Positions 3,160 through 46,362 of a stretch of DNA of 64,000 bases are shown piece by piece. Source of the stretch: a virus (taxonomy: Duplodnaviria > Heunggongvirae > Uroviricota > Caudoviricetes); IMG/VR virus record IMGVR_UViG_3300042448_001193. One strand, 5' to 3'. Under the pieces are notes generated by a model. The model searched no databases. It saw only the letters and a program-made list of their open reading frames with translations, and was not told where the DNA came from. The stretch's first letter is position 1. Each line of letters opens with the position of its first letter. The translations under genes and the position numbers were made by a program.

Positions 3160-3187
3160 TTGACAATTACCATGGGCGTGGTATAAT
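3160..3187 (+). promoter_or_regulatory. sigma70-like early promoter cassette (TTGACA 3160-3165, 16-nt spacer, TATAAT 3182-3187, TGn extended -10)
   Basis: ttgacaattaccatgggcgtggtataatagagcc; member of repeated cassette. Confidence 0.7.
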
Positions 3188-3219
3188 AGAGCCTTAGACA
3201 GACAGAAAGCGAGACCCTA

Positions 3220-3468
3220 ATGCGAACCAAACAGTTGATCCGTGGCTTGAAAAACTCCCAACGTATCCGTGTGATCCTCAATAATGTAGCATTTTTTACT
3301 ACAGCATCGGGGACTGACGATATCATGTATCGTAACCAGCGCATCGCGGTTCAGTTTGCACTGGAGCGTATGGTTAAAGAAAAAATTACCGGACTCGCGA
3401 CCACCTTTTCGTGCTACAATGAAAAGATGGAATCCGAGCGTATCCAAGTACAGGTGGACTTAGTATGA
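3220..3468 (+). CDS. hypothetical early protein (82 aa)
   Basis: first ORF after promoter; ATGA-coupled to 3465..3626. Confidence 0.45.
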   Translation: MRTKQLIRGLKNSQRIRVILNNVAFFTTASGTDDIMYRNQRIAVQFALERMVKEKITGLATTFSCYNEKMESERIQVQVDLV

Positions 3469-3626
3469 CAAGAATTCTTTTTTATCGCCTCCAAGCTCTG
3501 GAAGCCTTGCGCTGCACTTCAATGCAAGCCACCAAAATTGGTGATATTTGGTGCGAAGGTTGGATCAGCGAAGCGGACATGGAAACATTCCGACTGAATG
3601 GCTGGTGGTACGAAGTTCAGAAGTGA
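3465..3626 (+). CDS. hypothetical small protein (53 aa, MTRILFYRLQALEALRC...)
   Basis: below track threshold; ATGA overlap with upstream stop. Confidence 0.3.
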   Translation: MTRILFYRLQALEALRCTSMQATKIGDIWCEGWISEADMETFRLNGWWYEVQK

Positions 3627-3641
3627 GTACTTTTACTGTAC

Positions 3642-3669
3642 TTGACAATTACCTAGAACCTGGTATAAT
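3642..3669 (+). promoter_or_regulatory. early promoter cassette (TTGACA 3642-3647, TATAAT 3664-3669)
   Basis: gagtacttttactgtacttgacaattacctagaacctggtataatagagact. Confidence 0.7.
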
Positions 3670-3699
3670 AGAGACTTAGAACGAAACGAAGGAATCAAA

Positions 3700-3866
3700 A
3701 TGGATATCACAACAGCAATCGCGCAAATCAACCAAGAAGCCGAACACTTGGGCTTGGGTCTTCTGGAAACATTGCAAGATATCCAAGAGCGTGGCGAGAT
3801 GGTCTACAGTGACAAGACTATGCGCGCCTATCGCGTGTTCATGGCTCAAGGCGCTAAATTTTTCTA
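3700..3866 (+). CDS. hypothetical small protein (55 aa, MDITTAIAQINQEAEHLG...)
   Basis: manual ORF downstream of promoter with SD AAGGAAT. Confidence 0.35.
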
Positions 3867-3876
3867 AGGAGTAGTT

Positions 3877-4158
3877 ATGAAGCAAAATTATACAATGTAT
3901 ATTTACAAAGCCGACCGCCGTTGCAAGACTGGTGAGCGCCTGTTCTCCACTACCGTGTGGCCTAACCGTGATGAAGCCACGATCCGCCGCGAGTGCAACG
4001 AATTGTATGACCTGTATCCCGCGACAAAAGGGTGGCGCTTTGAATGTCACCCAACCACAATTACCGTCAAAAGTTACATGACTGGCGAGGATGTCCAAAT
4101 CGACCGCGACACACCATGGTGTTGTAATCCTGCGTCAGAATCTTTTTGGTCAATGTAA
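3877..4158 (+). CDS. hypothetical protein (93 aa)
   Basis: ORF with SD AAGGAG upstream. Confidence 0.5.
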   Translation: MKQNYTMYIYKADRRCKTGERLFSTTVWPNRDEATIRRECNELYDLYPATKGWRFECHPTTITVKSYMTGEDVQIDRDTPWCCNPASESFWSM

Positions 4159-4164
4159 AACCAC

Positions 4165-4192
4165 TTGACAAGTCTCCACCAATCTGTATAAT
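4165..4192 (+). promoter_or_regulatory. early promoter (TTGACA 4165-4170, TATAAT 4187-4192)
   Basis: cttgacaagtctccaccaatctgtataatagaacc. Confidence 0.6.
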
Positions 4193-4291
4193 AGAACCTA
4201 TGAAACTGATTACTGAAATCTTCCAAGCCGCCATCATCGCCACTCTGATGTTTGGTCCTTTCTTTTATTACTTCCTTTTTATGATGAAACC

Positions 4292-4471
4292 ATGATCCGA
4301 GTTATTTTGGCCTGGGCGATCCTAAGCGCCCTCATTGCATTCTTGATTACCATGTTCCGAAGTTTGTCTGGTAAACAAAAATGGCAGTTGACAAAAGTTG
4401 TTGGCTATGCTACAATGTGTTCTCTTATCGCAGTAGCAATTCTTGTTGGTATTGTTGTCCTCTTTTAAGGA
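4292..4471 (+). CDS. small membrane protein (59 aa, two hydrophobic segments)
   Basis: manual ORF; hydrophobic; contains promoter-like TTGACA-17-TACAAT at 4388-4416. Confidence 0.3.
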
Positions 4472-4565
4472 GTTATCATGTTCAGTGACCTTTTGCTAAG
4501 GCCCTTGTATTTCATCCTGGGCTTCCTTGTTTGTTTTGTTCTTTTTTCTTTTGGAGTTCTTTAAT

Positions 4566-5363
4566 ATGAATCGTTACCTGAAACTTGGCGCTATCGCCGC
4601 AGCCGTTGCTTTGACTTCCGCATGTACTCGTATTGAAACTGGTGAGGTCGGTGTTCGTGTCGGCTTTGATAAACAGGTGCAGTCTGGTGAGTTGCTGCCT
4701 GGATCATTCAACCAAACTATCGTTGGCACTATTTTGACTTTCCCAGTCAAGGACGTTAACGTAGTCCTGGAGAATATGACACCCGTTGCAAAAGACAACA
4801 GCACCATGAAAGACTTGGACGCTGTGGTTGTTTACAACATCAATCCACAAACCGTTGCTGAACTATACTCCGCAAAGAACAAATCGTTCCACGCAGAATT
4901 CAAAGGTGACACATATGTGATGTATAACTATGTGGTGCAAAACGCACGGAATGCCATCTACAAAGCCGCACGAAAGTATGAAGCATTGGACATGGCTGAT
5001 AACCGCACGGATATGGAAAACTATATCAAGGATGAAATTCAGCGAAACCTTGCTGAGGAAAAACTTGACGGTAGTATCACTATCTCCCAGGTCATGATCC
5101 GTAACGTATTGCCAAGTGATACAGTGGTAGAATCCGCTAACGCATTGGTTCGTAGCAAAAACGAATTGAAGCAAAAGGAAGTGGAAGTGAAAACTGCTGA
5201 GGCCGAAAGCCGTCGTATGGCTGCATTGGCTAACAACTCAGGCAGTTCCATTGCATTCATGCAAGCACAAGCTATGTTGAATATCTCAGAAGGTATCAAG
5301 AACGGCAAGGTGCAGACAATCGTTGTGCCATCCAACTTCAATGCTTTGATGATGGGTAAGTAA
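4566..5363 (+). CDS. SPFH/band-7 (prohibitin-like) domain lipoprotein; lipobox LTSAC
   Basis: start placed at MNRYLKLG with GGAG SD; signal/lipobox then SPFH-like sequence and C-terminal coiled coil. Confidence 0.5.
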   Translation: MNRYLKLGAIAAAVALTSACTRIETGEVGVRVGFDKQVQSGELLPGSFNQTIVGTILTFPVKDVNVVLENMTPVAKDNSTMKDLDAVVVYNINPQTVAELYSAKNKSFHAEFKGDTYVMYNYVVQNARNAIYKAARKYEALDMADNRTDMENYIKDEIQRNLAEEKLDGSITISQVMIRNVLPSDTVVESANALVRSKNELKQKEVEVKTAEAESRRMAALANNSGSSIAFMQAQAMLNISEGIKNGKVQTIVVPSNFNALMMGK

Positions 5364-7897: not shown

Positions 7898-8119
7898 ATG
7901 ACTAAAAAGAAAGAAGCAAAGAAGTTTATGTATGGCGTAGGCTTCTATTGGGAAGGCGATAGCGGTCACGTAGGTCTGTATGCATCTGGTAGCGAAGTCT
8001 TTTATGGCACAATGGAAGAAGCCAAGAACTTCCAAGCATACTGTCAGTCACGCCCAGATAACAGAGGTAAGGAAAAGCGCGAGTATAAGATATTCCAACT
8101 TATCGAGGTACCAGAGTGA
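7898..8119 (+). CDS. hypothetical protein (73 aa)
   Basis: ORF; coupled train 7898-9111. Confidence 0.45.
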   Translation: MTKKKEAKKFMYGVGFYWEGDSGHVGLYASGSEVFYGTMEEAKNFQAYCQSRPDNRGKEKREYKIFQLIEVPE

Positions 8120-8334
8120 ATCAACCCATAACATTTTATAACACCAGTTTCACAGGTGTATTACCCACCTCAGCCGTGGGTAAAGGCGTTATAAACAAAA
8201 CAGTCTGGGAACAAACCACGTATCCCAATGGCTCAGTAGTCACCAGAAGCTATCATGATACCATTGAAGTGTATGATAAAAATGCAGTCGTGACCAAACA
8301 CAATCAACAAAACATTATAGACATGATGGTATGA
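8116..8334 (+). CDS. hypothetical protein (72 aa)
   Basis: ATGA overlaps. Confidence 0.45.
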   Translation: MNQPITFYNTSFTGVLPTSAVGKGVINKTVWEQTTYPNGSVVTRSYHDTIEVYDKNAVVTKHNQQNIIDMMV

Positions 8335-8525
8335 ACGATAAAGACAATATCAAAGCTGGCGCAGATATGAACGCAGGTGATGGTGGTTATAGAATAGGCA
8401 CTCAGGAAGCATATGAGGAGTTTGTAAAGCTCCGAAACGAAGCCATAGCACTAGCCAAAAAAGAAGGTATCAAAGAACGCCACTATACCAACTCAGGTAA
8501 ACCGATTGACTTTCCTGATAGATGA
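8331..8525 (+). CDS. hypothetical protein (64 aa)
   Basis: ATGA overlaps. Confidence 0.4.
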   Translation: MNDKDNIKAGADMNAGDGGYRIGTQEAYEEFVKLRNEAIALAKKEGIKERHYTNSGKPIDFPDR

Positions 8526-9111
8526 CAAAGATGTTTGGCATACATTAGATGCTGACGATCTTTGGATTTATGATAAGCTAATCCTAGCCAAGAAACTTGG
8601 ATATAAAGCCGCGCCCGCAGGTGTTCCAGTTGATAGCCCTAATTGGTACATTGTTCGCCCTATAACCAATCTCCGCATGATGAGTCGTGGTGCAGCAAAG
8701 CAATGGCTAACGCCCAATGATGTTAACGCAATTCCAGATGGTTATTTTTGGTGTGAGTTTTTCACTGGTGACCATATCTCAGTAGACTATCATTATGGTC
8801 AACAACACATTTGTGTACAAGGGTTTAGAAACAGTGATAGGCTTGATAGATTTTGCAGATGGACTAAAATAGATAAGCACATTCCAATACCACTTCCGCT
8901 AAAGCACTTATCAGAAAAATACGAATGGATCAATGTAGAGTATGTTGGTGGTAATCCGATTGAAGTCCATGCAAGGTACAATGACGACTTCACCAACCAT
9001 TCATGCAACACTATAATACCCGTTTGGAAAAACGAATCCATTGAGCAACCACCAGGTTCTTCATGGTACGAATCGCCCTCAGCAGAACGATTAGGATTTT
9101 GGATATACTAA
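8506..9111 (+). CDS. hypothetical protein (201 aa)
   Basis: ORF. Confidence 0.5.
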   Translation: MTFLIDDKDVWHTLDADDLWIYDKLILAKKLGYKAAPAGVPVDSPNWYIVRPITNLRMMSRGAAKQWLTPNDVNAIPDGYFWCEFFTGDHISVDYHYGQQHICVQGFRNSDRLDRFCRWTKIDKHIPIPLPLKHLSEKYEWINVEYVGGNPIEVHARYNDDFTNHSCNTIIPVWKNESIEQPPGSSWYESPSAERLGFWIY

Positions 9112-9153
9112 AAGTAATACTTTAGTCTTACACCAAGTTTAGTCAGGTATTGG

Positions 9154-9181
9154 TTGACACTTACCGGAAACCTGGTATAAT
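9154..9181 (+). promoter_or_regulatory. early promoter cassette (TTGACA 9154-9159, TATAAT 9176-9181)
   Basis: ttgacacttaccggaaacctggtataatagagccatagacag. Confidence 0.7.
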
Positions 9182-9210
9182 AGAGCCATAGACAGTAAGA
9201 AAGACAAATC

Positions 9211-9399
9211 ATGGCCTTCGAATCAAAAATCCTCTCCCTTGTTGCTAAAGTCACCACCGATGCTGAATTCACCAGCGGTACTCTTTTCGTGACATGCACT
9301 CCACGTGAGGCCGCTAAAATCCAAACGATTTTGGAAAATCCCGCTTACGGCGTGATTGTCTCTCCTGTTGGTGATCAATTTGCTTTTGACTTTGTTTGA
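9211..9399 (+). CDS. hypothetical protein (62 aa)
   Basis: ORF after promoter. Confidence 0.4.
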   Translation: MAFESKILSLVAKVTTDAEFTSGTLFVTCTPREAAKIQTILENPAYGVIVSPVGDQFAFDFV

Positions 9400-9513
9400 T
9401 TGGAGTTTTTATGTTTGAATTTTTAGTCGTTGTTTGTGTTGTGTTGGTCTTGGTTGGTGGCACTGTTAGTGGCTCCGTTGAGACCTTAGGTTAATCCTTT
9501 CATTGGAGTTATC

Positions 9514-9810
9514 ATGAAAATCGCTCGGACTATTCTTGATCAAATTGGATATCTAGACCCATGGGCTATGTATGCTTGGGGTGCAGTAGACCTCACTGAT
9601 ATGGGTGATGGCTTACAATTTAAAACAACTGGTATGACACCATTCAAAGGTTTGGTGTATATCCAATACAAGCCTTGCCCTGACCTGTATAACATCACAT
9701 TTATGCAAGTCCGTAAGGTCAAAGGCGTTCCTACAGTGAAAGTCCGCAAGATAGTGGTGGACGTATATGCTGAGGACTTGATTCGTACCATTGACGAATT
9801 CGTAGGATGA
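9514..9810 (+). CDS. hypothetical protein (98 aa)
   Basis: ORF with SD. Confidence 0.5.
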
Positions 9811-10013
9811 TCCAAATGAAATTCAAACTAGGTGACACCGTTAGAAAAGTGTCTGGCTCACAGTGGCATGGCACCATTGTGGGAACTTATAGCACCAAAC
9901 TTACACCAGAAGGCTATGCTGTGGAAAGTTTCACAGAGGTGGGTTCAGTCCAGATTTATCCAGCTAAGGCGTTGGAACTATTCACACCCAATAAAAAGAG
10001 TACTTCCGACTGA
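9807..10013 (+). CDS. hypothetical protein (68 aa)
   Basis: ATGA overlap. Confidence 0.45.
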
Positions 10014-10025
10014 CTTGACAATTAC

Positions 10026-10053
10026 CTATAACCTGGTATAATAGAGACTTAGA
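10026..10053 (+). promoter_or_regulatory. early promoter cassette (TTGACA 10026-10031, TATAAT 10048-10053)
   Basis: cttgacaattacctataacctggtataatagagact. Confidence 0.7.
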
Positions 10054-10069
10054 TAGAAAGAAACAGGAG

Positions 10070-10453
10070 TTGGAAATGGCACGTGAAACAGTAGCACAAC
10101 GTAATGCACGATACGCCCAAGAGCGTGAAACATACCTCGCAAAGCAAGTGGATGAATATCCACAGCGCCTCATGCTTGCTCTGGCACGTGCTACAAAAGC
10201 ATACTTTGAACTCACTGTAAGTAACAACAACAAGTTCCAACTTACTAACCGTAACGACCGTTATGATTATTTCTCTTTGGCTTACGCACATTCTCCCGAT
10301 AGCCAAGAACAATTAGAATCGTTGGAATATGATCTGGATCGCCATGAAGCGGAACTTGCTGAACGTAAGCGCCTGGCCGAAGTAAAGGCAGAGGCATTGC
10401 GTAAGGTCAATGAATTGTTGACTGCGGAAGAGCGTGAATTGTTGAACTTGTAA
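10070..10453 (+). CDS. hypothetical coiled-coil protein (127 aa)
   Basis: ORF; heptad-rich C-terminus. Confidence 0.5.
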   Translation: MEMARETVAQRNARYAQERETYLAKQVDEYPQRLMLALARATKAYFELTVSNNNKFQLTNRNDRYDYFSLAYAHSPDSQEQLESLEYDLDRHEAELAERKRLAEVKAEALRKVNELLTAEERELLNL

Positions 10454-18893: not shown

Positions 18894-19192
18894 TATTTAC
18901 GTGCCCTTCCGCAGACAAATGCTGCTTTCAAATAATCAATAACAATCTGCTTGGTGCGTGGGTCATCACTGAAATGGCTCAGGAGCCACTCTGACCTCAT
19001 GCTGAATCCTTGCAGTTCATTGAACCAATCGTCAAACTCTGGATACTCATACCGTGTTAGGATATTGCACTGTGATAATGTAAGGTCACTATAATCTGAG
19101 TGGCATGTATCACACTCATAATAAAATAGGTTGTCGGTCAGTTTTATCTCAGCCTGACCATCGCCGCAAACGTCACACGTTACTGTTTTCAT
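18893..19192 (-). CDS. Zn-ribbon protein (CDVCGDG ... CDTCHSD)
   Basis: 99-aa ORF with two CxxC pairs. Confidence 0.45.
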   Translation of the reverse strand: MKTVTCDVCGDGQAEIKLTDNLFYYECDTCHSDYSDLTLSQCNILTRYEYPEFDDWFNELQGFSMRSEWLLSHFSDDPRTKQIVIDYLKAAFVCGRARK

Positions 19193-19625
19193 TGTATATT
19201 TCCACGTTGTTCAAAATTGGTTCTTTTATTGTCTTACTTAGATGCACGATTGTTTTGAATTCTTTGCACCATGGTATATCAGTCCGAATCACGTATGTCC
19301 ACAATCCGGCTTTGATTGATGTATCTATCATATGTTTCGTGCCGGTTGATGTGCCATTCCAAAATGCTATGCACTGTTCGGCATACTTAGACATTTCCAC
19401 ATTCCTCATGGGTCCTGCTTTGCGCCCATGTGTGTCCCAATCAGCCGGAAATAATTTCAGTTGCTTGCCATGCATTGTGGCCCAACGCTCACCAAGTGTA
19501 TCAGCACCGGCTGCATGACCGGATACTACCTCAGTGATTTCAACCCATGGTGGTATTGTACTCATGTATCCACTGAAATACTTCCAGTCTTCAAAACCAC
19601 GCCCACCACATATGATTGTCTTCAT
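19173..19625 (-). CDS. SLOG-like (DUF2493/DprA/LOG-like Rossmann) protein (ICGGRGFED ... GADTLGERWA ... NGTSTGTKHMI)
   Basis: Gly-rich phosphate-binding-like motifs typical of SLOG superfamily; motif-level only. Confidence 0.4.
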   Translation of the reverse strand: MKTIICGGRGFEDWKYFSGYMSTIPPWVEITEVVSGHAAGADTLGERWATMHGKQLKLFPADWDTHGRKAGPMRNVEMSKYAEQCIAFWNGTSTGTKHMIDTSIKAGLWTYVIRTDIPWCKEFKTIVHLSKTIKEPILNNVEIYNENSNV

Positions 19626-32145: not shown

Positions 32146-32508
32146 TTAGCTTTCGTCTTCCCCTTCCAGTTCAGACATTGCTTGCTCTACACCACTTTCA
32201 TCCATAATCTCAGCATAAAAATCATAGTATCCATCATCCGTTGGATAATACAGAATATACAGAAAACTATCGCCAGATAAGTGTGTTGCTAATTCTTCAC
32301 CTTCAGTGTTCAAATCATAAAGGGACTCAAATGCGATTCCCTCAAGATAAAGTATTTTACGAATCTTTGCGATACCCGATTCTGGTGTCAAGACAGGCTG
32401 AGTTAGCTCAACCATCAACAACAGATTGAGTTTACCCTGCGTTACTGAGTCAATGGAGACTTCATCTCCACCATCCATTGACTCCGTGATGAATTCTTTG
32501 AAATTCAT
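32146..32508 (-). CDS. small acidic protein with T4 CTS-like leader MNFKEFITE|S; candidate packaged internal protein
   Basis: N-terminus resembles T4 IP leader MKTYQEFIAE. Confidence 0.5.
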   Translation of the reverse strand: MNFKEFITESMDGGDEVSIDSVTQGKLNLLLMVELTQPVLTPESGIAKIRKILYLEGIAFESLYDLNTEGEELATHLSGDSFLYILYYPTDDGYYDFYAEIMDESGVEQAMSELEGEDES

Positions 32509-34763: not shown

Positions 34764-36557
34764 TTACTCTCCCTTGGCTTGCTTGGTGGCCGTAGCGTAC
34801 ATAACAGACTTAGCATCTTTGCCATAACGCTCTTTGAAGCCAGCAATGTTCTTCTTCATGCCTTTGACATTCTTTTCCAATGCAGCCTTTTCAGCGGTGG
34901 TCAATGAACGCTCTTCAATTTGCTCAACTTCTTCCTTAGCTAAACGATCAACAGCTTTGCCCATGTTTTCGCGGCGCTTCCAAGACTTAGCAAAAGTTTT
35001 ATCTGCTTTCTCCATGCTCTTTCTAGCATCATTGTAGCGTGAATCTTTACGTGCAGCTTCTGAATCATTAGCATGTTGACGAGTCAATGCGCCCTTGTGT
35101 GCAACATCATGAGATGCTTTCTTGACATAGGATGCTAGTGTAGACTTCTTTAGTTCATCTAGTTGTTCAAATTCTTCAGTTTGCATGAAGTTTTCAACAT
35201 CTTCAACAGTAAATTCAAGTTCATCTAAGTTTTCATATTCTTCTCTAGTCAAACGTTTAACAGCTTTTTTAACGCCGCGGTCTCGCTTTTTAATCACACG
35301 CTGATCTGCTTTCATTTCGCGGGCGTTACGAACCTGATCAGCTTTTTTTTCAGGTTGGGCACCATACGCCACGCTTGCAATATTATGCTCTCTATCTGCT
35401 TGACTTCTTACAGCTTTATTGATGTATGAACCGAGTGTCTTCTTACTTAACTCATCAATTTGTTCAACTTCTTCTTTAGTCAAACGATCTACCGCTCTTT
35501 GTATACCAGTAGTTGAATTTTTAAGTCTACGGAAGTTTCCTGGCGTCCTACGATTTCGTTCCAGTGTAGTAAGATGATGACCTACCTCGTGTGCGGCATA
35601 CCTCACCCTGCCTTGGGCTTTATTGATATATTTACCAAGAGTCTTCTTGCTCAGTTCATCTAGTTGTTCAAATTCTTCAGTTTGCATGAAGTTTTCAACA
35701 TCTTCAACAGTAAATTCAAGTTCATCTAAGTTTTCATATTCTTCTCTAGTCAAACGTTTAACAGCGCGATCAACGCCGCGATTTCGCTTTTTAATCACAC
35801 GTTCATCTTTTTTTATTTCGCGGGCTTGCTGTTTCACATCAGCTTTTTTTTCAGGTTGGTCGCCAAAGTGCAGACGTCCAATATTATAATCTTTATTTGC
35901 TACACTGCTTACAGCTTTATTGATGTATGAACCGAGTGTCTTCTTACTTAACTCATCAATTTGTTCAACTTCTTCTTTAGTCAAACGATCTACCGCTCTT
36001 TGTATACCAGTAGTTGAATTTTTAACTTTACGGACATGTTGTGGGGACGGTTTAAGTTTAGAAACATCACGTCCTATCATGTATGATCTATTTCTCACAT
36101 TATCTCGGGCAGCCTTAATATATTTACCAAGAGTCTTCTTGCTCAGTTCATCTAGTTGTTCAACAGATTCTTGCTTGACAGCTTGCACAGCAGGCTTTGC
36201 AACTTCAGCTTTGCTCTTGCCAATGGACTTGTCTTGTGCTATCTTGATCTCTTTGTTGAACTCTTCTTGAGATGCTTCTTCTTTTGTATACTTCTTAGTG
36301 TACACAGTGCCTGTGGAGATTTTCTTAGCATCGTGGCCAGTCTTCTCACCTTTTTCAGCAGTTTGGCGTGGAGTATTCTTCCAGTCAAATGGGCTAGCAG
36401 GCTTCTTGGCTTCCTCTTTGCGCAACAACTTGAAGTCGTGTGCATCAACTTTGCCGTTTTTGTTTTTATCGATCTTGTGTTGATCGCCTTTCAGTGCTTC
36501 GTCCACAACAGCTTTCACTGCTTCGGCCACTGATTTTAGAATTTTATCGTTGAACAT
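34764..36557 (-). CDS. large K/E-rich repeat protein with CTS-like leader (MFNDKILKSVAE|A); about 5 copies of EQ(I/L)DELSKKTLG(S/K)YINKA
   Basis: 597 aa; internal 0.5-kb tandem nucleotide duplications. Confidence 0.55.
   Translation of the reverse strand: MFNDKILKSVAEAVKAVVDEALKGDQHKIDKNKNGKVDAHDFKLLRKEEAKKPASPFDWKNTPRQTAEKGEKTGHDAKKISTGTVYTKKYTKEEASQEEFNKEIKIAQDKSIGKSKAEVAKPAVQAVKQESVEQLDELSKKTLGKYIKAARDNVRNRSYMIGRDVSKLKPSPQHVRKVKNSTTGIQRAVDRLTKEEVEQIDELSKKTLGSYINKAVSSVANKDYNIGRLHFGDQPEKKADVKQQAREIKKDERVIKKRNRGVDRAVKRLTREEYENLDELEFTVEDVENFMQTEEFEQLDELSKKTLGKYINKAQGRVRYAAHEVGHHLTTLERNRRTPGNFRRLKNSTTGIQRAVDRLTKEEVEQIDELSKKTLGSYINKAVRSQADREHNIASVAYGAQPEKKADQVRNAREMKADQRVIKKRDRGVKKAVKRLTREEYENLDELEFTVEDVENFMQTEEFEQLDELKKSTLASYVKKASHDVAHKGALTRQHANDSEAARKDSRYNDARKSMEKADKTFAKSWKRRENMGKAVDRLAKEEVEQIEERSLTTAEKAALEKNVKGMKKNIAGFKERYGKDAKSVMYATATKQAKGE
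35130..36180. repeat. imperfect tandem duplication of about 0.5 kb (2 copies plus partial third) inside gene 34764..36557
   Basis: blocks 35141-35285 vs 35642-35775 and 35413-35525 vs 35914-36025 nearly identical; partial at 36117-36170. Confidence 0.75.
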
Positions 36558-38236: not shown

Positions 38237-38614
38237 TTAGCAATTCCATTTTCTTAGTGCGAGAGCTTTACGGGACGGCTCTCCGTTAGGTTTCTTCATC
38301 GGACCTTCCACTCCACCCATTCTAGCACAGAATGACTTGCGACGGTTAGCAGCTTTACTGCCCGGTGTCAATTTTGATGGTGGTGTTGTAACCGGTGCTT
38401 TTAGATTGCCGCCATCTTTTCTGTTGTAGTAGTCACGACCCTTTTGAGTTAGACCACCAGTAGAGCTTTTTAGTCCTTTAGCATCAACTGCGGCTTCCAC
38501 TACAGTTTCTTCTTTCATACAAGAATCGGGTGAGTATGCTTTCTTACCTGGAACAGGTTTATAGCCTTTCCAGCAGCGCCCAGCTTCAGTGACAAAATCT
38601 TTATAGTTTTTCAT
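38237..38614 (-). CDS. small protein with CTS-like leader MKNYKDFVTE|A
   Basis: 125 aa; ATGA overlap with upstream 843-aa gene. Confidence 0.5.
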   Translation of the reverse strand: MKNYKDFVTEAGRCWKGYKPVPGKKAYSPDSCMKEETVVEAAVDAKGLKSSTGGLTQKGRDYYNRKDGGNLKAPVTTPPSKLTPGSKAANRRKSFCARMGGVEGPMKKPNGEPSRKALALRKWNC

Positions 38615-41142
38615 AGGTAATTCTTTCCTCTGAACGTGCTAAGTGATATGCCATGTTTAGCCAGTTCATCTTGTTTTTGTGCACCAATTGACGCTGTGGT
38701 TGAATCCCCACCCATTTCAGCAACAGGTTTCTTTTTCAGAGGATTCACTTTGCCATTCTTGTCATTGATTTCGCCCATGTCACGCCCAATGCCTTCGCCA
38801 CCAGCAGCCATGGACATGCCAGTTTCTATGCCTTTGTCGATGGCTTCTTTGAACGTGTTTTTGGCTTGCGAGAGGGTGAGCTTGCCTTTAAAGCGGCTGG
38901 CTTCGTGGATGTTTTTGGTGCTGGCTTCGGCACTGGCACTGGCACTTGTTCCTGCACTGTTACCACTGGAACTTCCACTTCCACTTTCGGTAATGGCTCT
39001 GGTACTACTACGACCGGAACTTCCACTTTCGGCAATGGTTGTGGCTCCGGTGCTGACTCCGGCACTACGGCTGGTGCTTCCACTTTCGGCAATGGTTGTG
39101 GCTCCGGTTCCACTGGCGGTTTGCTCTTCACAAAGAAACTTTTCACGAATTTCAACATTTACATTCTCCTTTAATTTAACTATGTAACCTTTGTCTGTCT
39201 TAACGACTTCACCACCTTTGGTGTGTGCGTCTTTAGCAGCATTGTTTCGTATTGCATATACTTTAGGCTTGTTGCCTGATGCAATATATGTAGCTCCATC
39301 TTTTACGGCAGTTCTTTCACCACTGATACTTTCGGAGACAAACATGGATTTTCCGAGCGTCAATAGATTGTATGCACCAGAATCAGACATTTCTGTGTGG
39401 TCCACGTGCTCCTCAACTTCCTGCTCTTCCACTTCTGCATCTCCATTGCCAGTCAGCATCTTCATTGCTTTTTGTAGCTCTTCTGGGGTATCAGCTTTGA
39501 AAGTAACTGAAACGGCCTCAAAAAGATTCTGAAAATCTTCGTTGATAGACTCTTTGACTGGTTTCTTGGGCACAGGCTTTTGGCTACTAGCTCCACTCAT
39601 AGGAACTTCAGCAGTTTTCTTAATCATCTTTTGCTGTTCAGCGTGTGTTGGATCCTGCACCAAAGTTCCGTGAACTGTGTGATGTGTGACTTTACCATTC
39701 TTACCATATCGGCCATAGCCATAGTATTGTAGCCCAAGGCGTCTAGCTTCATCAGTTGCTTTGTTTTCGCCCTCAGCGGAGTGTGGAATAGACAGTTCCG
39801 TGCCTTTCTTAGGAACAGGCAAGGTGTCTTTCTTCTGTAGTTCACCAGCAACCCAAGCCTTAGCTTGCTCATTCTTAGGTGGTGCTTGAACAAACTTTTG
39901 GACAGTCTTGAAGATGTTGTTCATCTCTTCTTTCTTGGCTTTGACCACTTCTGGTGCTGCGGTGCGCAAGTCTTCAGAGTTATCAAATTCAATATAGCTG
40001 TTGCCAAACAACTTAGCCATCTCTGGGCGTGAATTGTTTACTGCGTCCCACTTTTCTTTACGAATATTCTCAGGAACTGTACGACCACCTCTTTGCCCAC
40101 GCTCAACGTTTCTCTGTGCAGAAATTTCATCGCGTGTAACAACGGCAACCATAGAAGTTTCATAGCCAATTTCTTCTAAGTTTTTCTTTATCTTGGCATA
40201 CTTTGCGGGATCATCGCCTGTGCCATTGATAATGATGCCGTTGCGACCCAACAGCGCCAGCTTCTGCTTCAACTCTGTCATGTCTTTTGCTTTACCGCGA
40301 ACAAGTGTCCGTGCATCAGCTTCAGTCTCTGGCATTTTCTTGTCCAGATTATTCTTGTCCATCAGAAACTCAAGTGCTTTGTCTGAGTTGATTTCAATCA
40401 AGCCATGACCAGCAAGTGTGTTATCCAACACATAGTCTTTACCTGAGCCTGGACCGCCCGATAGAAACACAGCCTTGAAGATGCCTTTATCGTGGACACC
40501 CTCAGATAGGATCATCTGAATTTGTGATCGGAAATCTTCTTTGACTTGCATTCCCTTGCGCACATCATTATACAATTCTTTAGCGTGTTCTGGCGCTACG
40601 TGACTTGGAATGCCTTTTTTGAATTCTTTGAAGTTGCCTTTTGATGCATGGCTACGCATCTTGGATGCAGACATACCAGATACACCCTCAGCATCAGGAT
40701 CACGCTCACCAGCGGAGTGTACGTGAATACCACGAAACTTGAAGTATCCATGCGTACCTTTTACGCCATTGTATTTGTGTAAAATCTTCTCATACTCACC
40801 AGTTCTATCGGATCCTGCAACCATGTGCAAATGTGTAGCGCCAGCTTTGTGGAGTTTTGATGCTTGAGCCAGAAAGTTTGGATGTTCTTTACTGGAGGTT
40901 GTGATATTCGTGTCAGGAAAATATCGTTGTGCGTGTTTGACTTTTTGCTCACCTGAGAGTGGATTCTTCTCAGCGTCCTGTGAATGCGATAGAACCACGT
41001 GGTGTGTTCCTCTCACAGACTTAGCAACATCTTTGACTTTATCAACCAGTTTTGCATGACCGGTTGTTGGTGGATTCATGCGTCCGAACGCAAGGACCGC
41101 ATGTTTTTCTGTTGTTTCTTCTAAATATTGTCTGAACTTCAT
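38611..41142 (-). CDS. 843-aa fusion protein: CTS-like leader MKFRQYLEE|T; HxGH nucleotidyltransferase domain (GRMNPPTTGHAKL); P-loop kinase domain (FLSGGPGSGKD); repetitive low-complexity C-terminus (GATTIAESGS repeats)
   Basis: motifs read from translation; NadR-like (NMNAT plus kinase) architecture is inference. Confidence 0.5.
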   Translation of the reverse strand: MKFRQYLEETTEKHAVLAFGRMNPPTTGHAKLVDKVKDVAKSVRGTHHVVLSHSQDAEKNPLSGEQKVKHAQRYFPDTNITTSSKEHPNFLAQASKLHKAGATHLHMVAGSDRTGEYEKILHKYNGVKGTHGYFKFRGIHVHSAGERDPDAEGVSGMSASKMRSHASKGNFKEFKKGIPSHVAPEHAKELYNDVRKGMQVKEDFRSQIQMILSEGVHDKGIFKAVFLSGGPGSGKDYVLDNTLAGHGLIEINSDKALEFLMDKNNLDKKMPETEADARTLVRGKAKDMTELKQKLALLGRNGIIINGTGDDPAKYAKIKKNLEEIGYETSMVAVVTRDEISAQRNVERGQRGGRTVPENIRKEKWDAVNNSRPEMAKLFGNSYIEFDNSEDLRTAAPEVVKAKKEEMNNIFKTVQKFVQAPPKNEQAKAWVAGELQKKDTLPVPKKGTELSIPHSAEGENKATDEARRLGLQYYGYGRYGKNGKVTHHTVHGTLVQDPTHAEQQKMIKKTAEVPMSGASSQKPVPKKPVKESINEDFQNLFEAVSVTFKADTPEELQKAMKMLTGNGDAEVEEQEVEEHVDHTEMSDSGAYNLLTLGKSMFVSESISGERTAVKDGATYIASGNKPKVYAIRNNAAKDAHTKGGEVVKTDKGYIVKLKENVNVEIREKFLCEEQTASGTGATTIAESGSTSRSAGVSTGATTIAESGSSGRSSTRAITESGSGSSSGNSAGTSASASAEASTKNIHEASRFKGKLTLSQAKNTFKEAIDKGIETGMSMAAGGEGIGRDMGEINDKNGKVNPLKKKPVAEMGGDSTTASIGAQKQDELAKHGISLSTFRGKNYL
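38885..39125. repeat. about 60-bp tandem repeats encoding GATTIAESGS(S/T)xRS units
   Basis: ccactttcggcaatggttgtggctccggt recurring; generates spurious overlapping ORFs. Confidence 0.7.
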
Positions 41143-41196
41143 TTACTCCGCCTCTACAGCAAGTTTCATTATAGTCTATTTAGCAAAAAACAATTG

Positions 41197-41889
41197 TCAA
41201 TCTCTGACTAATTCTCCAGTCCTGGCGATCATTCCTGTGCAATACACACGGTCAACCTCAACCAGCTTATCTTTTGGAATGTGCAAAAAATGCACATGTT
41301 CTGTGTCCAATTGTCCAAGAATATTGAGATTTTTCTGTAATATTTCAAAATAATCATCAGCTAGACTGGAGCACAGTGAGAACAGTCTTGTGTCCAAGCA
41401 ATGTGTTGCACCAGAAACAACAGGATTCATCCATGTTTCATTGCGGCGCTTAAACACATAATGTCCTTGCTTGTCTGTATAATATGAAATGTCAAAGCCA
41501 TCATCAAGGACATATCTACCAGACAACTTGAATATTCTATCACACACGATTCCTTGCCTCTTTATGAAATTCAGCATTTCCATAAGAATGACTGTTTCAC
41601 CATGACTCTTCATGCCATGAGTTGAAAACATCTTGACTGCATGATGATCATTGAAACTCACAACCTTACAATATTCTTGCAGTTCATCTATCATTCCACC
41701 AAGTGGCGCAACTGAGATATCAGCGAGAAAGATCATAGCTGTTGGATCTTTCTCACGAATAGATTTCAGTGTGTCCAGTGTGTCGTTGAACCTCTGTATT
41801 GTATTGAAAACGCCAGCTTGTGTGAGCAAAGCGGAAGTTACGATGAATACATTCATGTGTGATTGAAGTCTCTGAATATGACAAACCAA
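41197..41889 (-). CDS. hypothetical protein, possible nucleotide-sugar transferase (230 aa)
   Basis: ORF in transferase cluster; weak. Confidence 0.35.
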   Translation of the reverse strand: MVCHIQRLQSHMNVFIVTSALLTQAGVFNTIQRFNDTLDTLKSIREKDPTAMIFLADISVAPLGGMIDELQEYCKVVSFNDHHAVKMFSTHGMKSHGETVILMEMLNFIKRQGIVCDRIFKLSGRYVLDDGFDISYYTDKQGHYVFKRRNETWMNPVVSGATHCLDTRLFSLCSSLADDYFEILQKNLNILGQLDTEHVHFLHIPKDKLVEVDRVYCTGMIARTGELVRD

Positions 41890-42683
41890 TAGTCAGGATT
41901 GACATAATTGATTTTGAAGTCGTGCGGTGACATTTTGTATGACATGAGCAACATGGACTGATCATCATCAATCAAATCCACTTCAATGTAGTTCATTATT
42001 GCCCGTGTCATGAGTGTTGCCATTTGCTTCCACTTTTCAACTGGTGCAACGATGTGACAGCCTTGGACGTACACATTATTTGTCTTGACGATATTGAATA
42101 TAGGTTCAGCTTCGTCAGGGTTGGAGAAACAGAACAGATTGATTAGATTCTGTGTGTTGAACTTCCATTCCATTCCAGCAGGACAGAATGTATCTTCACG
42201 CACATATCCAAAGTCTAACCAAGCAGCCGTGCCTGTTGACACATGACCCATCTTAATTGCTGTATTGACAAACAAAGATTTGGCGTAATTTATGAACACA
42301 TAATGTGGCGACCAATACTCAGGCATCGTTGGTTGATTCAGATGCGCAATAAACTCAGGGCGTCTTTGAATGTGTGCGATACGACTCAGTAGCTGGTTGT
42401 TGTCTTCAAAAATGTTATCAGCAACAACACAGATGATATCGTCACGATAACTCTTGATGGTGTCAATGAATTTGCTTTCGGTGAAAACAACGATAGGATT
42501 CTTTAGCTCAGTTAGTCGCTTGAATCTGTCCAGATATGTCTGTGTGTCACGCTTTAGGTAGTGTGGCAGTTGCTGACCATTTAGAGTACCTTCCCAATTT
42601 GACCTACCAATGTCAAAGAACGCAGTTACAATTGTGACAGTCTCACTCATTTCTTGATCCAGTACCATACATCGTTTGCACAA
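41853..42683 (-). CDS. hypothetical protein, possible glycosyltransferase (276 aa)
   Basis: ORF in transferase cluster; weak. Confidence 0.35.
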   Translation of the reverse strand: MCKRCMVLDQEMSETVTIVTAFFDIGRSNWEGTLNGQQLPHYLKRDTQTYLDRFKRLTELKNPIVVFTESKFIDTIKSYRDDIICVVADNIFEDNNQLLSRIAHIQRRPEFIAHLNQPTMPEYWSPHYVFINYAKSLFVNTAIKMGHVSTGTAAWLDFGYVREDTFCPAGMEWKFNTQNLINLFCFSNPDEAEPIFNIVKTNNVYVQGCHIVAPVEKWKQMATLMTRAIMNYIEVDLIDDDQSMLLMSYKMSPHDFKINYVNPDYWFVIFRDFNHT

Positions 42684-43201
42684 GTTTGTACTTCTGCGCC
42701 GTGCTTGGCTGCAAATTCATTTACCGCACGATTTACACCTTCGATGACATTGTAATCGTGACCTGCAAAAACACCACCAGATTTTACTTTACTGAAGTAA
42801 TTCTCACAGTCAATCGTGACTTGTTCGTATGTGTGTATTCCATCAATAAATATGAAATCGAGTGAGTCATCTTCAAAATGATTGACCATATTATCCGAGA
42901 AATCACGATGCATGACGAATCTATCACCGAACTCAGCACAGTAATCCAGAATCTGTTTGTGCATGTCAACACGATCTGTCAGGAATCTACCATTCCAGTC
43001 TTCATAGTTGACATACGGATCAATACCATGCAACACCAACTCAGGTAAGTTTTTCAGCAAATAGTGTGTTGTGTGGCCTTCAGCACAGCCGATCTCCAAA
43101 CCAACCTGTGGTCCCTTATCACGCAATAGTAGCAGAAGTCCTTTACCTGAACAAATCCACTCATTGGCAGGATTAGTATTCATTACAATGTAATCGCTCA
43201 T
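42647..43201 (-). CDS. class I SAM-dependent methyltransferase (GLEIGCAEGHTT), macrocin-O-MTase/FkbM-like
   Basis: SAM-binding motif I. Confidence 0.5.
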   Translation of the reverse strand: MSDYIVMNTNPANEWICSGKGLLLLLRDKGPQVGLEIGCAEGHTTHYLLKNLPELVLHGIDPYVNYEDWNGRFLTDRVDMHKQILDYCAEFGDRFVMHRDFSDNMVNHFEDDSLDFIFIDGIHTYEQVTIDCENYFSKVKSGGVFAGHDYNVIEGVNRAVNEFAAKHGAEVQTCANDVWYWIKK

Positions 43202-43210
43202 AATATTCTT

Positions 43211-44095
43211 TCATGTAGTAATAGTAAAATACTTAGGAGATGACCCAGTATCAGTTTCAGTTGTAATCTTCACATCATACTTATCATAGAAGTATTTTGT
43301 CCACTCAGGCACTCGGTCGTACTGATGCACAATAACGAAAGGCTCACCATCGGCGTTCTTAACAACACCATCTTCCATGTATGGACGATCCTCAAGTAAA
43401 TATGGACCAAACTCGTCCATCTGGTCTGGTTTATTTGTCACATGTGCATTCAATGCCCAGCCATCCATCAGTGGAAGACATGTCGCCACCTCGTTCCATG
43501 GCTTGAAACTCAGCAACATATTATATGCAGCTTGATCAGCAACCCAGTCGGGACGATTACTAGACATTTGAAATAGTGCAAAGCACAGGTCCTTGATGTA
43601 TTCTGTTGTGCCCGCTAGGATGCCCACGTTGAATACTTCATGTTCTTTGATATCCTCATAGAAGTATTGACCAAAGTTTTTGATGATGTTTTCACGATTC
43701 CATCGCTCATGCTGAATCTGGATTGCTTCCGATTGTGCTACGATACCTTTGTAGCTACCATATAGATTGTGTAGATACAAGCTAGGATTGCTCTGAAATA
43801 TCACATCACGAACATCTGTAGTGATGACATAGCGATATTTGTTATGGTACTTTTTCAGGAAATCGTAGATGTATAGGAAGCGCATCATGTGAATCATCAT
43901 GTTGCCTTGCTTTGGATGCTCAACAACAGTCACACCAGCGTCTTCAATCTCTAACACAATACTTTTCGGTGCATCAATTGCAATCAGTACAATATCACCA
44001 TCGAAGCCAGTTTCTTTGATGGAATGAATCCACGGCTTGACAACGTTGAAGTCGCTGTAGTTACTAAATGCACCAATTATTAAATCTTTCGCCAT
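43211..44095 (-). CDS. hypothetical protein (294 aa) in transferase cluster
   Basis: ORF; overlaps GT2 gene end. Confidence 0.4.
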   Translation of the reverse strand: MAKDLIIGAFSNYSDFNVVKPWIHSIKETGFDGDIVLIAIDAPKSIVLEIEDAGVTVVEHPKQGNMMIHMMRFLYIYDFLKKYHNKYRYVITTDVRDVIFQSNPSLYLHNLYGSYKGIVAQSEAIQIQHERWNRENIIKNFGQYFYEDIKEHEVFNVGILAGTTEYIKDLCFALFQMSSNRPDWVADQAAYNMLLSFKPWNEVATCLPLMDGWALNAHVTNKPDQMDEFGPYLLEDRPYMEDGVVKNADGEPFVIVHQYDRVPEWTKYFYDKYDVKITTETDTGSSPKYFTITT

Positions 44096-44808
44096 GGATA
44101 GTTTCCTTTCAAATGCTGTTGCATCGCATTATTACCGCGAATAAAGAATGAGTCCTGTACAGAGTCTGCGCGACTCGCCACCCTATAGTTTACAGTATAT
44201 TGACCATTCGTGTCAAATGTTTTCGACTTGGCCATCATAAATGCCGAAAGAATTCTATCAACTTCAGGTTGATCGTTAGGATGTCTAGCTCTACGATACC
44301 AATATGGAGCAAATTCTAGTGCGGCCATCTTCGGTATCATGAAACAGTTCACATCAACAAAATTGTCACCGATCACCGATTGCCACTTACCAAGTGATTC
44401 ACAGTCATCATTACAAATGTAGTTGCCATCCTGATCAACGATTTTGCGTAATGAGTATGCCCAATCATTACCTCTTGTGAGTTGGTTAACTAGCGATTCA
44501 ATGTGATTATCATCGTACCAATTGTCTTGGTCTAGAAAGCACAGGTATTCGCCCTCAGCAATAAATGTCATAGCACCATAGATACGATGACCATTGTATT
44601 GGCTATGACCTGTGTTATATGGTAATGTGAGTATACTAGCATATCGTGATCCGACAATGGAATCTAGTGCATTTTCATAATGCTCAACTCCATCAACAAC
44701 GATTAGATGCTGTATGTTCTTGTATGTTTGATTATCAACAGACCGAACTGCGTCAGCTAATTGAGCAGTTCCTGTTGTTGGTGTAATTACTGTGATCAAT
44801 GGGTTCAT
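44080..44808 (-). CDS. family-2 glycosyltransferase (ITVITPT ... DxD FLDQDNWY)
   Basis: GT-A N-terminal motif and DxD. Confidence 0.55.
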   Translation of the reverse strand: MNPLITVITPTTGTAQLADAVRSVDNQTYKNIQHLIVVDGVEHYENALDSIVGSRYASILTLPYNTGHSQYNGHRIYGAMTFIAEGEYLCFLDQDNWYDDNHIESLVNQLTRGNDWAYSLRKIVDQDGNYICNDDCESLGKWQSVIGDNFVDVNCFMIPKMAALEFAPYWYRRARHPNDQPEVDRILSAFMMAKSKTFDTNGQYTVNYRVASRADSVQDSFFIRGNNAMQQHLKGNYPWRKI

Positions 44809-44824
44809 AATATAATTGAGTTAG

Positions 44825-45130
44825 TTACTGACCTGGAGTATCTCGTTTGTATCGCTTGACTAGCAAGTCTGTGCCCTCTTGCCCTGCGCCAGCTGGTGGC
44901 AGAATGTCTGGATTAGGAGACTTCTTTTCTTCATGCACACTTTTATGTAGCTGAACTCCAGTGACTTTCTGGACCATATCCCAAGCATCCTTTGTTCGCT
45001 TGTTCTTCACATGATCATCAAATTTCTTTTTCTGTTCAGGTGTAGCTTTTTGCTTGAATTTGATAAGTTCCATAATGCCGATGTTACCAGCATAAGATGC
45101 TTCTTTCACCAGTTCTTTGAATGACTGCAT
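44825..45130 (-). CDS. small basic protein with CTS-like leader MQSFKELVKE|A
   Basis: start at ATG overlapping upstream stop (TAATG). Confidence 0.45.
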   Translation of the reverse strand: MQSFKELVKEASYAGNIGIMELIKFKQKATPEQKKKFDDHVKNKRTKDAWDMVQKVTGVQLHKSVHEEKKSPNPDILPPAGAGQEGTDLLVKRYKRDTPGQ

Positions 45131-46362
45131 TATTTGTCCCACGCTTTCTGTGCGGTGAAGTTTGCATGACTGAATTCAAGTCTATCAACCAACTTGACGG
45201 CATTACCTTTTAGTCGATCAACAGCAACAAAGCCTTCTGGATTCGTGACCTTAAATCCATCATCTGTACGTAAGAATGCACCAGTAACTTGACGCATCTG
45301 TTGTAACTTTTTGATAATGATATTCTTGGAATCAACGATCATATTCATGATATCAAAAATCTTAACAAGCTCGGCAAAGTTGCTTCGATAGAATCGCATG
45401 ATTTCATTCTTTTCAGCTTGACGCTTGAGTTTAGTGTCTTCTCTTTTAGCGGCAATAATCTCTTTGTTCAGCTTGTCTTCAATCCATTTCAACAGTCCTT
45501 TCGCATGTTCCGTTGTATCTTTGATGTGTTCACCGGAACGAACTTTCGTGTTGTTGTATGTTTTGATCTGAACATTGAATATCTCAGAGGTAGCAATACG
45601 ATTCAGGGTCATGCTACTGGTTCTTTGGAACAGGGATCCTGCTTGAGATAAAATAGCTGTGATTTCTTTAGTCTCTTTTTCGGTAAATGTGACTGTACCA
45701 GATGCGTCAACGAAATATGCATCACGGAACCAAACATCCTTAGTTGCTTTCATTCTACCAATATCGATGTTGAATGAAGACTTCAAATCTGCGATTGTCT
45801 TTCCTGTGTATGCCGTATGAAACACAATACCCATTTGTGCTGTCAACATGGACTTAGCTAGTGCAGAATCTTCAGGAACCGCATACACGATTGTGTTTGG
45901 TTGAAATGTCACATACTTGACACCATCAATCGTTGCTTTCTTGATATCACCTTTAGCAAACATCATGTCGCCTTGCAGAATGCCATCGATACCAATCTTA
46001 GGCAAGTATGCTAGTGCAACCTTCAGTTTCTTATTCAGGCCTTCACCTGGATGATTTCTGTCAATATCTTCATCGGTGTAGTTCAGCTTTGCATCTTTGT
46101 TGAAGATGCCTTTTGTGGCTACAAAGAACTTACCATTCTCTGGATTAGTGCCAGCAAATACAGCAGGTGCACCGTCCCATTTTGTGGTAATGTTTACCTT
46201 GCCGTCTGAATTGCCAGCAAGCATGTCTCTGAGTGATCGCAAAAAGTTGATTGCATCTCTCGTACCAGCTACACCGCGATTTAGAACTTCTTCCTCGATA
46301 TGCTCTAGGTGAACGTTCTTGCCTTCTTTTGAGGACTCTGTTAGGAATTCTTTGAATTTCAT
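45130..46362 (-). CDS. covalent nucleotidyltransferase (ligase/capping superfamily, KxDG motif TTKWDGAP) with CTS-like leader MKFKEFLTE|S; candidate packaged RNA/DNA ligase
   Basis: motif I KWDG plus downstream DGI/K-rich motifs; start set at TAATG overlap. Confidence 0.4.
   Translation of the reverse strand: MKFKEFLTESSKEGKNVHLEHIEEEVLNRGVAGTRDAINFLRSLRDMLAGNSDGKVNITTKWDGAPAVFAGTNPENGKFFVATKGIFNKDAKLNYTDEDIDRNHPGEGLNKKLKVALAYLPKIGIDGILQGDMMFAKGDIKKATIDGVKYVTFQPNTIVYAVPEDSALAKSMLTAQMGIVFHTAYTGKTIADLKSSFNIDIGRMKATKDVWFRDAYFVDASGTVTFTEKETKEITAILSQAGSLFQRTSSMTLNRIATSEIFNVQIKTYNNTKVRSGEHIKDTTEHAKGLLKWIEDKLNKEIIAAKREDTKLKRQAEKNEIMRFYRSNFAELVKIFDIMNMIVDSKNIIIKKLQQMRQVTGAFLRTDDGFKVTNPEGFVAVDRLKGNAVKLVDRLEFSHANFTAQKAWDK

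Follow-up and report, generated by a model that had tools for sequence, protein, structure and literature searches.

What is a large protein with two enzymatic domains doing beside the virion genes of a T4-like phage, and at what point in the infection would it act? The window, by which we mean the whole stretch of 64,000 nucleotides analysed here (IMG/VR record IMGVR_UViG_3300042448_001193), is part of an uncultured T4-like (Kyanoviridae-like) phage that encodes a DNA polymerase, UvsX, a gp41-type helicase, a ribonucleotide reductase and ThyX, and whose closest relatives in culture, Pelagibacter phage HTVC008M and Methylophilales phage Melnitz, belong to the Kyanoviridae. Its main gene, the subject of this study, is an open reading frame (ORF) of 843 amino acids comprising a short leader, a nucleotidyltransferase domain (N domain), a P-loop kinase domain and a long tail. 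The original prediction, made from the sequence alone, had read this protein as a NadR-like fusion bearing a capsid-targeting sequence (CTS) and serving the salvage of nicotinamide adenine dinucleotide (NAD). Our analysis favours a broader explanation: we consider it rather probable that the main gene encodes a capsid-targeted, ejected protein of the polyvalent type, in which two enzymes of a T4-like phage act on a nucleotide-type small molecule.

The main gene encodes two intact enzyme domains

The ORF lies where it had been predicted; it is on the minus strand and has an ATG start (Table 1). Residues 1-498 have 5347 homologous proteins at E<=1e-5, the best of them 98% identical across the entire query; an exhaustive search of cluster representatives gave 5474 matches, and an identical protein is encoded on 18 public contigs, the longest of 143 kb, annotated in every instance as 'hypothetical protein'. 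With this many homologues and clusters, and an identical copy on each of those contigs, the ORF is a genuine gene and not a product of chance. An AlphaFold 2 (AF2) model contains two folded domains, at about residues 13-205 (predicted local distance difference test, pLDDT, 89.5) and about residues 215-436 (pLDDT 90.6), and the two motifs on which the original prediction rested, an HxGH-type motif (GRMNPPTTGHAKL, with TTGH at residues 26-29) and the Walker A string FLSGGPGSGKD, are both present (Table 1).

The N domain shares a Rossmann-like fold with NMNAT, PPAT and GCT. In its second signature, S158 and R163 are invariant in both family alignments and K161 is invariant in the larger (A4) and nearly so in the other (A1), while the family-specific motifs GSDR and SAGERD, the latter within SAGERDPDAEG, are invariant in the N-domain alignments and have no assigned counterpart in NMNAT or PPAT. 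PHROG 'cytidyltransferase' families match residues 9-208 at 1e-65 and 2e-43, compared with just 2e-3 for the PHROG NMNAT family; the Pfam family CTP_transf_like (PF01467) scores the window protein at 17.8-20.2 bits, against a gathering cut-off of 21, and matches all 28 homologues searched at E<=0.1 (best 3e-7). NMNAT and PPAT folds align with the domain over 140-159 residues, compared with 107-118 for sugar- and polyol-phosphate transferases, with NMNAT slightly ahead as the closest fold; identity to NadM-type or archaeal NMNATs (2QJT, 1F9A) and to PPAT (CoaD) is 10-17%, with profile scores of at most 19 bits. To judge from its conserved residues, the N domain is an active-looking member of a distinct family of HIGH nucleotidyltransferases.

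The second domain had been taken for a kinase of the adenylate kinase type, a description that holds for the P-loop string but not for the domain as a whole, which falls into the zeta/PNK/AAA_33 class. Pfam Zeta_toxin matches at 7.5e-13 (48.8 bits, gathering score 22.3) and AAA_33 at 8.5e-8 (33 bits, gathering score 27), an assignment that agrees in 24 of 24 homologues. Profiles are needed to see these relationships in the PDB, where a single-sequence search gives weak adenylate kinase matches only: the profile search places adenylate kinase 1 first (1.5e-7), followed by UMP/CMP kinase, T4 PNK (8e-5) and zeta toxin (6e-4), and NadR is absent among the best 60 of 85 matches (E<=1). Aligned to T4 PNK, the domain scores 94.5% in hhalign over approximately 140-154 columns, the RNxxRG lid included, and 90% or more of the homologues retain the Ser-Asp pair at residues 253-254. 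The Asp of this pair falls opposite that of NINRD in T4 PNK, which we take to be the catalytic Asp35, a residue following strand 2 that activates the acceptor hydroxyl and has its zeta-toxin equivalent in Asp67. The best structural matches include C. thermocellum Pnkp, Pnkp1, T4 PNK, PSTK and the fungal tRNA-ligase kinase, and among the structural neighbours is AvrRxo1, a zeta-like kinase that phosphorylates NAD. The domain is best described as a putative hydroxyl-phosphorylating kinase of the PNK/zeta class.

Table 1. Coordinates of the main gene, its parts and the other leader-bearing genes within the window (aa, amino acids).
Feature	Coordinates	Strand	Remarks
Main gene, 843-aa ORF, ATG start	38611..41142 (stop codon included)	minus	leader, nucleotidyltransferase, kinase and tail
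Leader MKFRQYLEE, aa 1-9	41116..41142	minus	T4-type, capsid-targeting-like; predicted prohead-protease site after L-E-E
HIGH-superfamily nucleotidyltransferase domain (cytidylyltransferase-like, NMNAT/PPAT-like), aa 13-205	40528..41106	minus	
GRMNPPTTGHAKL, (H/T)xGH ATP-binding motif, aa 20-32	41047..41085	minus	G20, R21, G28 and H29 invariant
GMSASKMR, second signature (ISSTxxR-like)	40654..40677	minus	S158, K161, R163
P-loop kinase domain, zeta-toxin/AAA_33/PNK class, aa 206-435	39838..40527	minus	
FLSGGPGSGKD, Walker A / P-loop, aa 226-236	40435..40467	minus	
EINSDKA, nearly invariant Ser-Asp (aa 253-254)	40375..40395	minus	D254 aligns with Asp of T4 PNK NINRD
RNVERGQRGGRTVPENIRKEKW, Arg-rich lid	40048..40113	minus	aligns with adenylate kinase lid and KRNSKRG of T4 PNK
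Conserved tail block C1, aa 436-520	39583..39837	minus	includes EARRLGLQYYGYGRYGKNGKVTHH
Conserved basic tail block C2, aa 596-672	39127..39357	minus	
Ser/Gly/Thr/Ala-rich tract, aa 671-745	38908..39132	minus	75% of residues S/G/T/A
Conserved tail block C3, aa 740-843	38614..38925	minus	
DUF6321 gene, 125 aa	38237..38614	minus	ATGA overlap with main-gene stop; DUF6321 1.4e-25; leader MKNYKDFVTEA, in exact register with T4 MKTYQEFIAEA
DUF6267 protein, 410 aa from ATG	45130..46362	minus	leader MKFKEFLTES
101-aa ORF	44825..45130	minus	leader MQSFKELVKEA; no family match
120-aa ORF	32146..32508	minus	leader MNFKEFITES; no family match

A T4-type leader and the detection of homologues in virions

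The evidence that the protein would travel in the virion begins with its N-terminus. The leader resembles, with a one-residue shift, the start of T4 IPII and IPIII (MKTYQEFIAE), and AF2 predicts a helix at residues 3-10. The T4 internal proteins (IPs) IPI, IPII and IPIII, together with Alt, likewise have a leader of approximately ten residues, with aromatic residues at positions 4 and 7, an aliphatic residue at position 8 and Glu at position 10; the first ten residues of IPIII are enough for capsid targeting, positions 4 and 7 determining targeting and positions 8 and 10 cleavage (PMC9026906). In T4, as here, the leader is common to several unrelated proteins of one genome, and one of them, IPI, is a restriction inhibitor (PMC3012670). 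Whereas the T4 internal proteins are small and basic, the window protein, whose packaging we infer, has 843 residues and two metabolic-type enzyme domains.

Within the six-frame translation of the window, a loose leader pattern matches five times, always at the start of an ORF, and never in 200 shuffles, a zero that is indicative only, as the pattern was derived post hoc from the same five starts. All five ORFs have at least 100 amino acids, lie on the coding strand and are otherwise unrelated (Table 1). The protein alignment of the N domain has F4, F7 and E10 as its N-terminal consensus, and the leader is present on 92 of 116 close homologues, compared with 0.76% of internal Met positions; more distant homologues that are leaderless begin right at the first beta strand. 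Genes 16, 17 and 18 of Melnitz also have a common leader.

Three cyanophage proteins with an N domain homologous to that of the window protein (33-44% identity), S-SZBM1_140, S-CREM2 gp154 and S-SCSM1 ORF91, were found by mass spectrometry in purified virions (PMC9146016, PMC10665884, PMC9602691), and the authors of the S-SCSM1 study mention a further case in S-CBWM1. Their genes are placed as the main gene is, following those for DNA polymerase, UvsX and gp41, and two of the proteins carry the same leader, S-SZBM1_140 beginning with MRFRQFIIEA and S-CREM2 gp154 with MKNFSSFLTEA. They differ from the window protein in their tails and in being without the kinase domain. To our knowledge, the leader of these homologues has not previously been pointed out as a capsid-targeting sequence; the cyanophage authors did already speculate that virion-carried NMNAT-like cytidylyltransferases are brought in to alter NAD levels. 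The prediction of a CTS-bearing protein agrees with the match to the T4 sequence, and presence in virions applies at the level of the homologues; on these grounds we regard packaging of the 843-amino-acid protein as a well-founded expectation.

We propose that the leader would direct the protein into the scaffolding core during head assembly, that the prohead protease would remove it after L-E-E, and that tens to hundreds of copies would enter the host along with the DNA. Inside the cell, ahead of phage gene expression, the two domains would then work one after the other on a small molecule of nucleotide type, with the kinase phosphorylating a hydroxyl in one reaction and AMP being transferred from ATP onto a phosphate in the other.

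A NadR-like arrangement outside the NadR family

Comparison of the AF2 model with NadR, which the original prediction had proposed as a check, gave the same domain order: the top Foldseek match of the two-domain model is NadR (6gyf, E 1.8e-6 over 443 columns), owing to the shared arrangement of HIGH nucleotidyltransferase and P-loop kinase, and the other matches are ATP sulfurylase/APS-kinase and TmcAL. Profiles tell otherwise of family membership, as the protein scores 14.6 bits with the curated NadR model TIGR01526, whose cut-off is 341.15, and hhalign of the N-domain profile to E. coli NadR gives 10.9% over 27 columns. The claim of a NadR-like fusion thus stands for domain order and fold, but not for membership of the NadR family or for a kinase of the ribosylnicotinamide type.

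The same holds for the phage counterpart of NadR. NARP3, for which there are crystal structures (9X6F, 9X6H), pairs a NadR-like enzyme with PnuC in phages of Enterobacteriaceae, and its enzyme Bas30_86 likewise has a HIGH-type adenylyltransferase followed by a P-loop kinase. Neither NadR nor NARP3 has a significant sequence relationship to the window protein (9X6F reaches E=1.2 in a profile search; the N-domain profile gives L. lactis NadR 14 bits and 9X6F 12), and the NadR-type kinase subclass differs from that of the window kinase. Unlike both, the window protein is without a helix-turn-helix domain and has no PnuC partner in the window, where no coding-strand ORF of at least 100 amino acids has more than three hydrophobic segments. 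As far as reported, NARP3 is expressed after infection and not packaged. The window protein is a NadR analogue in logic and not a member of the NadR family.

Domain shuffling among relatives

Among the best 150 cluster representatives, 87 have the nucleotidyltransferase followed by the kinase, 34 the kinase alone, 28 the nucleotidyltransferase alone and one the reverse order. HTVC008M encodes kinase (gp129) and nucleotidyltransferase (gp130) as adjacent separate genes, kinase first (7998-10447), and in Melnitz the two lie approximately 50 kb apart (gene 18 at 2995-4947); public labels for these separate genes are 'hypothetical protein' or 'cytidyltransferase'. The fusion was found in none of the records of the cultured-phage collection, where none covers at least 80% of the full protein. 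Fifty long homologues carry extra domains, namely DUF5824 in 11, DUF6321 in six (in each at the C-terminus), DUF5661 in two and LysM in one; ART-PolyVal was found in one homologue, and three metagenomic proteins (P0229, P0269, P0361) have DUF6267 fused upstream of the N domain.

This mixing and matching of domains, together with the virion-gene neighbourhood, is why the protein fits the concept of polyvalent proteins, which likewise join several unrelated enzymatic domains in one polypeptide and lie among virion genes (Iyer et al., 2017); the relatives of the window protein show similar shuffling of ADP-ribosyltransferase (ART), DUF6321, DUF5824 and LysM domains. That survey lists zeta-like kinases among polyvalent domains, and its text has no match for 'cytidylyltransferase' or 'NMNAT'. 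The hub domains of polyvalent proteins are not found here: Pfam searches of the window protein and the 50 long homologues gave no MPTase, ArdC-N, MuF, DdrB-ParB or SNF2 domain.

Likely chemistry and alternative explanations

Pairs of a kinase and a HIGH-type transferase, such as NadR, COASY, HldE and PAPS synthase, all build a nucleotide cofactor in two steps. Among the possible substrate classes for the window protein, NAD-type chemistry is the leading candidate, because the N domain comes closest in fold to NMNATs, fusions with NAD-using ART domains occur in some relatives and AvrRxo1 is a structural neighbour of the kinase. In such a scheme, the N domain would adenylylate nicotinamide mononucleotide (NMN) or nicotinic acid mononucleotide, and the kinase would act on the riboside beforehand or on a ribose hydroxyl of the dinucleotide afterwards. 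We regard NAD-related chemistry of any kind as plausible, while on balance expecting some other outcome. The full proposal, a capsid preloaded with a two-step enzyme that makes or alters NAD-type dinucleotides (by NMNAT-like synthesis or AvrRxo1-like phosphorylation) and is active from DNA entry, we put forward only tentatively.

Several observations weigh against a packaged enzyme acting on NAD or a related molecule. On the side of chemistry, the profile of the N-domain family has no significant characterised relative in the PDB, where PPAT scores 19 bits and RibF and the M. jannaschii NMNAT MJ0541 16 each; hhalign of the N domain gives 56% for E. coli PPAT, 11% for NadR and 1.6% for NadD, in the HxGH region only; the kinase is no nearer to the ribosylnicotinamide kinase of NadR or to NRK1 than to generic P-loop kinases; and ART fusions, though real, are rare (two of the 50 long homologues). 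With respect to packaging, the mass spectrometry covers homologues and not the 843-amino-acid protein itself, the cyanophage authors caution that plentiful proteins of the cytoplasm might be carried along when virions are purified (PMC10665884, PMC9602691), and no prohead protease gene was seen in the window. Nor was the T4 late-promoter motif TATAAATA found upstream of the main gene; a sigma-70-like match, TTGACA-16-TAGACT (41173-41200, minus strand), precedes the start codon by approximately 30 nucleotides and differs from the T4 late consensus; five bases further on there is a perfect TATAAT. Such sigma-70-like matches are not commoner than chance in the region.

A rival reading is an auxiliary metabolic enzyme that stays in the cytoplasm uninjected, for example of the coenzyme A type (PPAT plus dephospho-CoA kinase), with its homologues contaminating virion preparations. 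We judge this unlikely, as the conserved leader resembling the T4 CTS is common to unrelated neighbours and present on two of the three virion-detected homologues, the family has turned up in no fewer than four independent virion proteomes, and the hhalign match of the kinase to CoaE is limited to 30 columns of the P-loop.

Taken literally, the original prediction describes a packaged enzyme that converts nicotinamide riboside to NMN and on to NAD+ and thereby counters Thoeris, DSR and SIR2 defences upon entry. Domain order and fold are those such an enzyme would have; the kinase of the window protein falls outside the ribosylnicotinamide kinase type, and the 64 kb examined hold no importer for nicotinamide riboside near the gene, for which reasons we rate this pathway as improbable.

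Equally doubtful in our estimation is the healing of nucleic acid ends, in which a packaged polynucleotide 5'-kinase would mend tRNA or mRNA after cleavage by anticodon nucleases of the host, with the nucleotidyltransferase and neighbouring packaged proteins supplying further repair steps. The T4 PNK alignment with its conserved Asp and the kinases named above among the best structural matches speak for it, as does the top PDB profile match of the N domain, MJ0951, which is reached through the C-terminal motif and is TmcAL-like, of a tRNA-modifying family. Yet the position aligned to what we take to be Arg38 of T4 PNK, presumably the residue that binds the 3'-phosphate and confers specificity for polynucleotides, is Leu here and Phe in the consensus; phosphatase and cyclic phosphodiesterase domains are absent from the protein, the neighbouring DUF6267 protein finds no support as a ligase (see below), and we know of no HIGH-family enzyme in RNA end repair.

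Least likely of all is envelope or nucleotide-sugar chemistry, in which a zeta-like kinase acting on UDP-GlcNAc or another sugar and TagD/HldE-like synthesis of a CDP- or ADP-donor would weaken the wall at entry or supply the adjacent glycosyltransferase cluster, since the syntenic locus of the cyanophage has no such cluster, which leaves the linkage unconserved, and the NMNAT and PPAT folds are closer and align over greater lengths.

The C-terminal tail

The tail proved less repetitive than predicted. Instead of about 350 low-complexity residues there is one such tract of about 75, and the rest includes three conserved, non-repetitive blocks (Table 1), which co-occur with the kinase in a homologue set gathered with a query of both domains. 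Nor is there an array of 60-bp tandem repeats: Tandem Repeats Finder reports no array of about that unit length in the tail, and at the DNA level we find a family of three 45-nt copies, uncalled by that program, with spacings of 48 and 57 nt and identities of 91% and 69%. The GATTIAESGS units that had been noted exist as two exact copies (residues 680-689 and 699-708) and a degenerate third (residues 715-724), and form no long array. Because all length differences among relatives of at least 90% identity fall within residues 693-737, the Ser/Gly-rich tract is a hotspot of insertion and deletion.

Genomic setting

A megablast search with 20 kb around the main gene found no close cultured relative. 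The order of polymerase, UvsX, helicase, DUF6267, main gene and virion proteins is that of Synechococcus phage S-SZBM1, and a metagenomic contig of 164 kb (L002) has the same polymerase-to-virion gene order. Between leader-bearing genes lie, at 41197-44808 on the minus strand, genes of the HtrL_YibB-like, Methyltransf_24 and Glycos_transf_2 families and unassigned sequence. This glycosyltransferase and methyltransferase cluster, directly upstream of the main gene, is present in L002 and absent at the S-SZBM1 locus; it may serve glycosylation of DNA, virion or envelope.

Downstream, the DUF6321 protein consists of its leader followed by a Cys-flanked CWKGYKPVPG motif. The motif CWKGYK precedes the nucleotidyltransferase domain in P0242, P0253, P0263 and P0266 and also occurs within the virion-detected S-SZBM1_139, and other phages encode DUF6321 as a fusion with this nucleotidyltransferase-kinase module. 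The gene after it encodes a virion structural protein (phrog_1645, 2.4e-110). The 101- and 120-amino-acid ORFs with leaders are candidate small internal proteins.

The DUF6267 protein matches its Pfam family at 5e-111, and its conserved motifs TKWDGAP (KxDG-like), NPEGFVAV (EGFV-like) and KLVDRLEFS resemble motifs I, IV and V of ligases. The idea of an RNA ligase found no support: hhalign to T4 Rnl1, the ligase family member that the comparison covered, gave 0.3%, and phmmer and profile searches of the PDB returned no ligase.

Further from the main gene, a 597-amino-acid protein of long internal repeats (34764-36557, minus strand), with recurring EQLDELSKKTLGKYI and REEYENLDELEFTVEDVENFMQTEEFEQLDEL units, has PHROG matches that are all weak, and a similarly placed gene of L002 (646 amino acids) has a HicA_toxin Pfam match. 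A 150-amino-acid protein (19173-19625, minus strand) contains a YAcAr (YspA/cpYpsA-related SLOG) domain at 2.6e-13, a family predicted to bind nucleotide or ADP-ribose-type ligands. A stand-alone AAA_33 kinase of 155 amino acids (423-890, minus strand; 1.8e-19) shares no more than a distant relationship with the main gene's kinase domain, with an hhalign score of 19% in the P-loop region only.

Implications for T4-like marine phages

Phage pathways that reconstitute NAD, and speculation about virion-carried NMNAT-like proteins of cyanophages, were known before this work; what is new is that the nucleotidyltransferase is joined to a PNK/zeta-class kinase, that a T4-type leader is recognised on this protein and its neighbours, and that domain shuffling forms a network. 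The N-domain family is a conserved, uncharacterised gene of T4-like cyanophages and of relatives infecting SAR11 and OM43, and the two domains together match thousands of metagenomic protein clusters; the family is very widespread and conserved, and probably injected. The kinase fusion narrows the candidate chemistry to two-step pathways of kinase plus adenylyltransferase. Recognition of the leader ties scattered proteomic detections into one coherent picture, and its occurrence on the main protein and four neighbouring ORFs offers a rule, open to testing, by which the injected proteins of T4-like phages from the sea could be predicted.

If the protein does act on NAD or another cofactor at entry, metabolite restoration in the style of NARP1-3 would extend from expressed genes to pre-packaged proteins. 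Should its targets be NAD-type dinucleotides, this would be the first virion-delivered metabolic enzyme of such a kind for counter-defence or host take-over, and the conservation of a 'cytidylyltransferase' among marine phages of the T4 type, as well as its repeated detection in their virions, would have an explanation.

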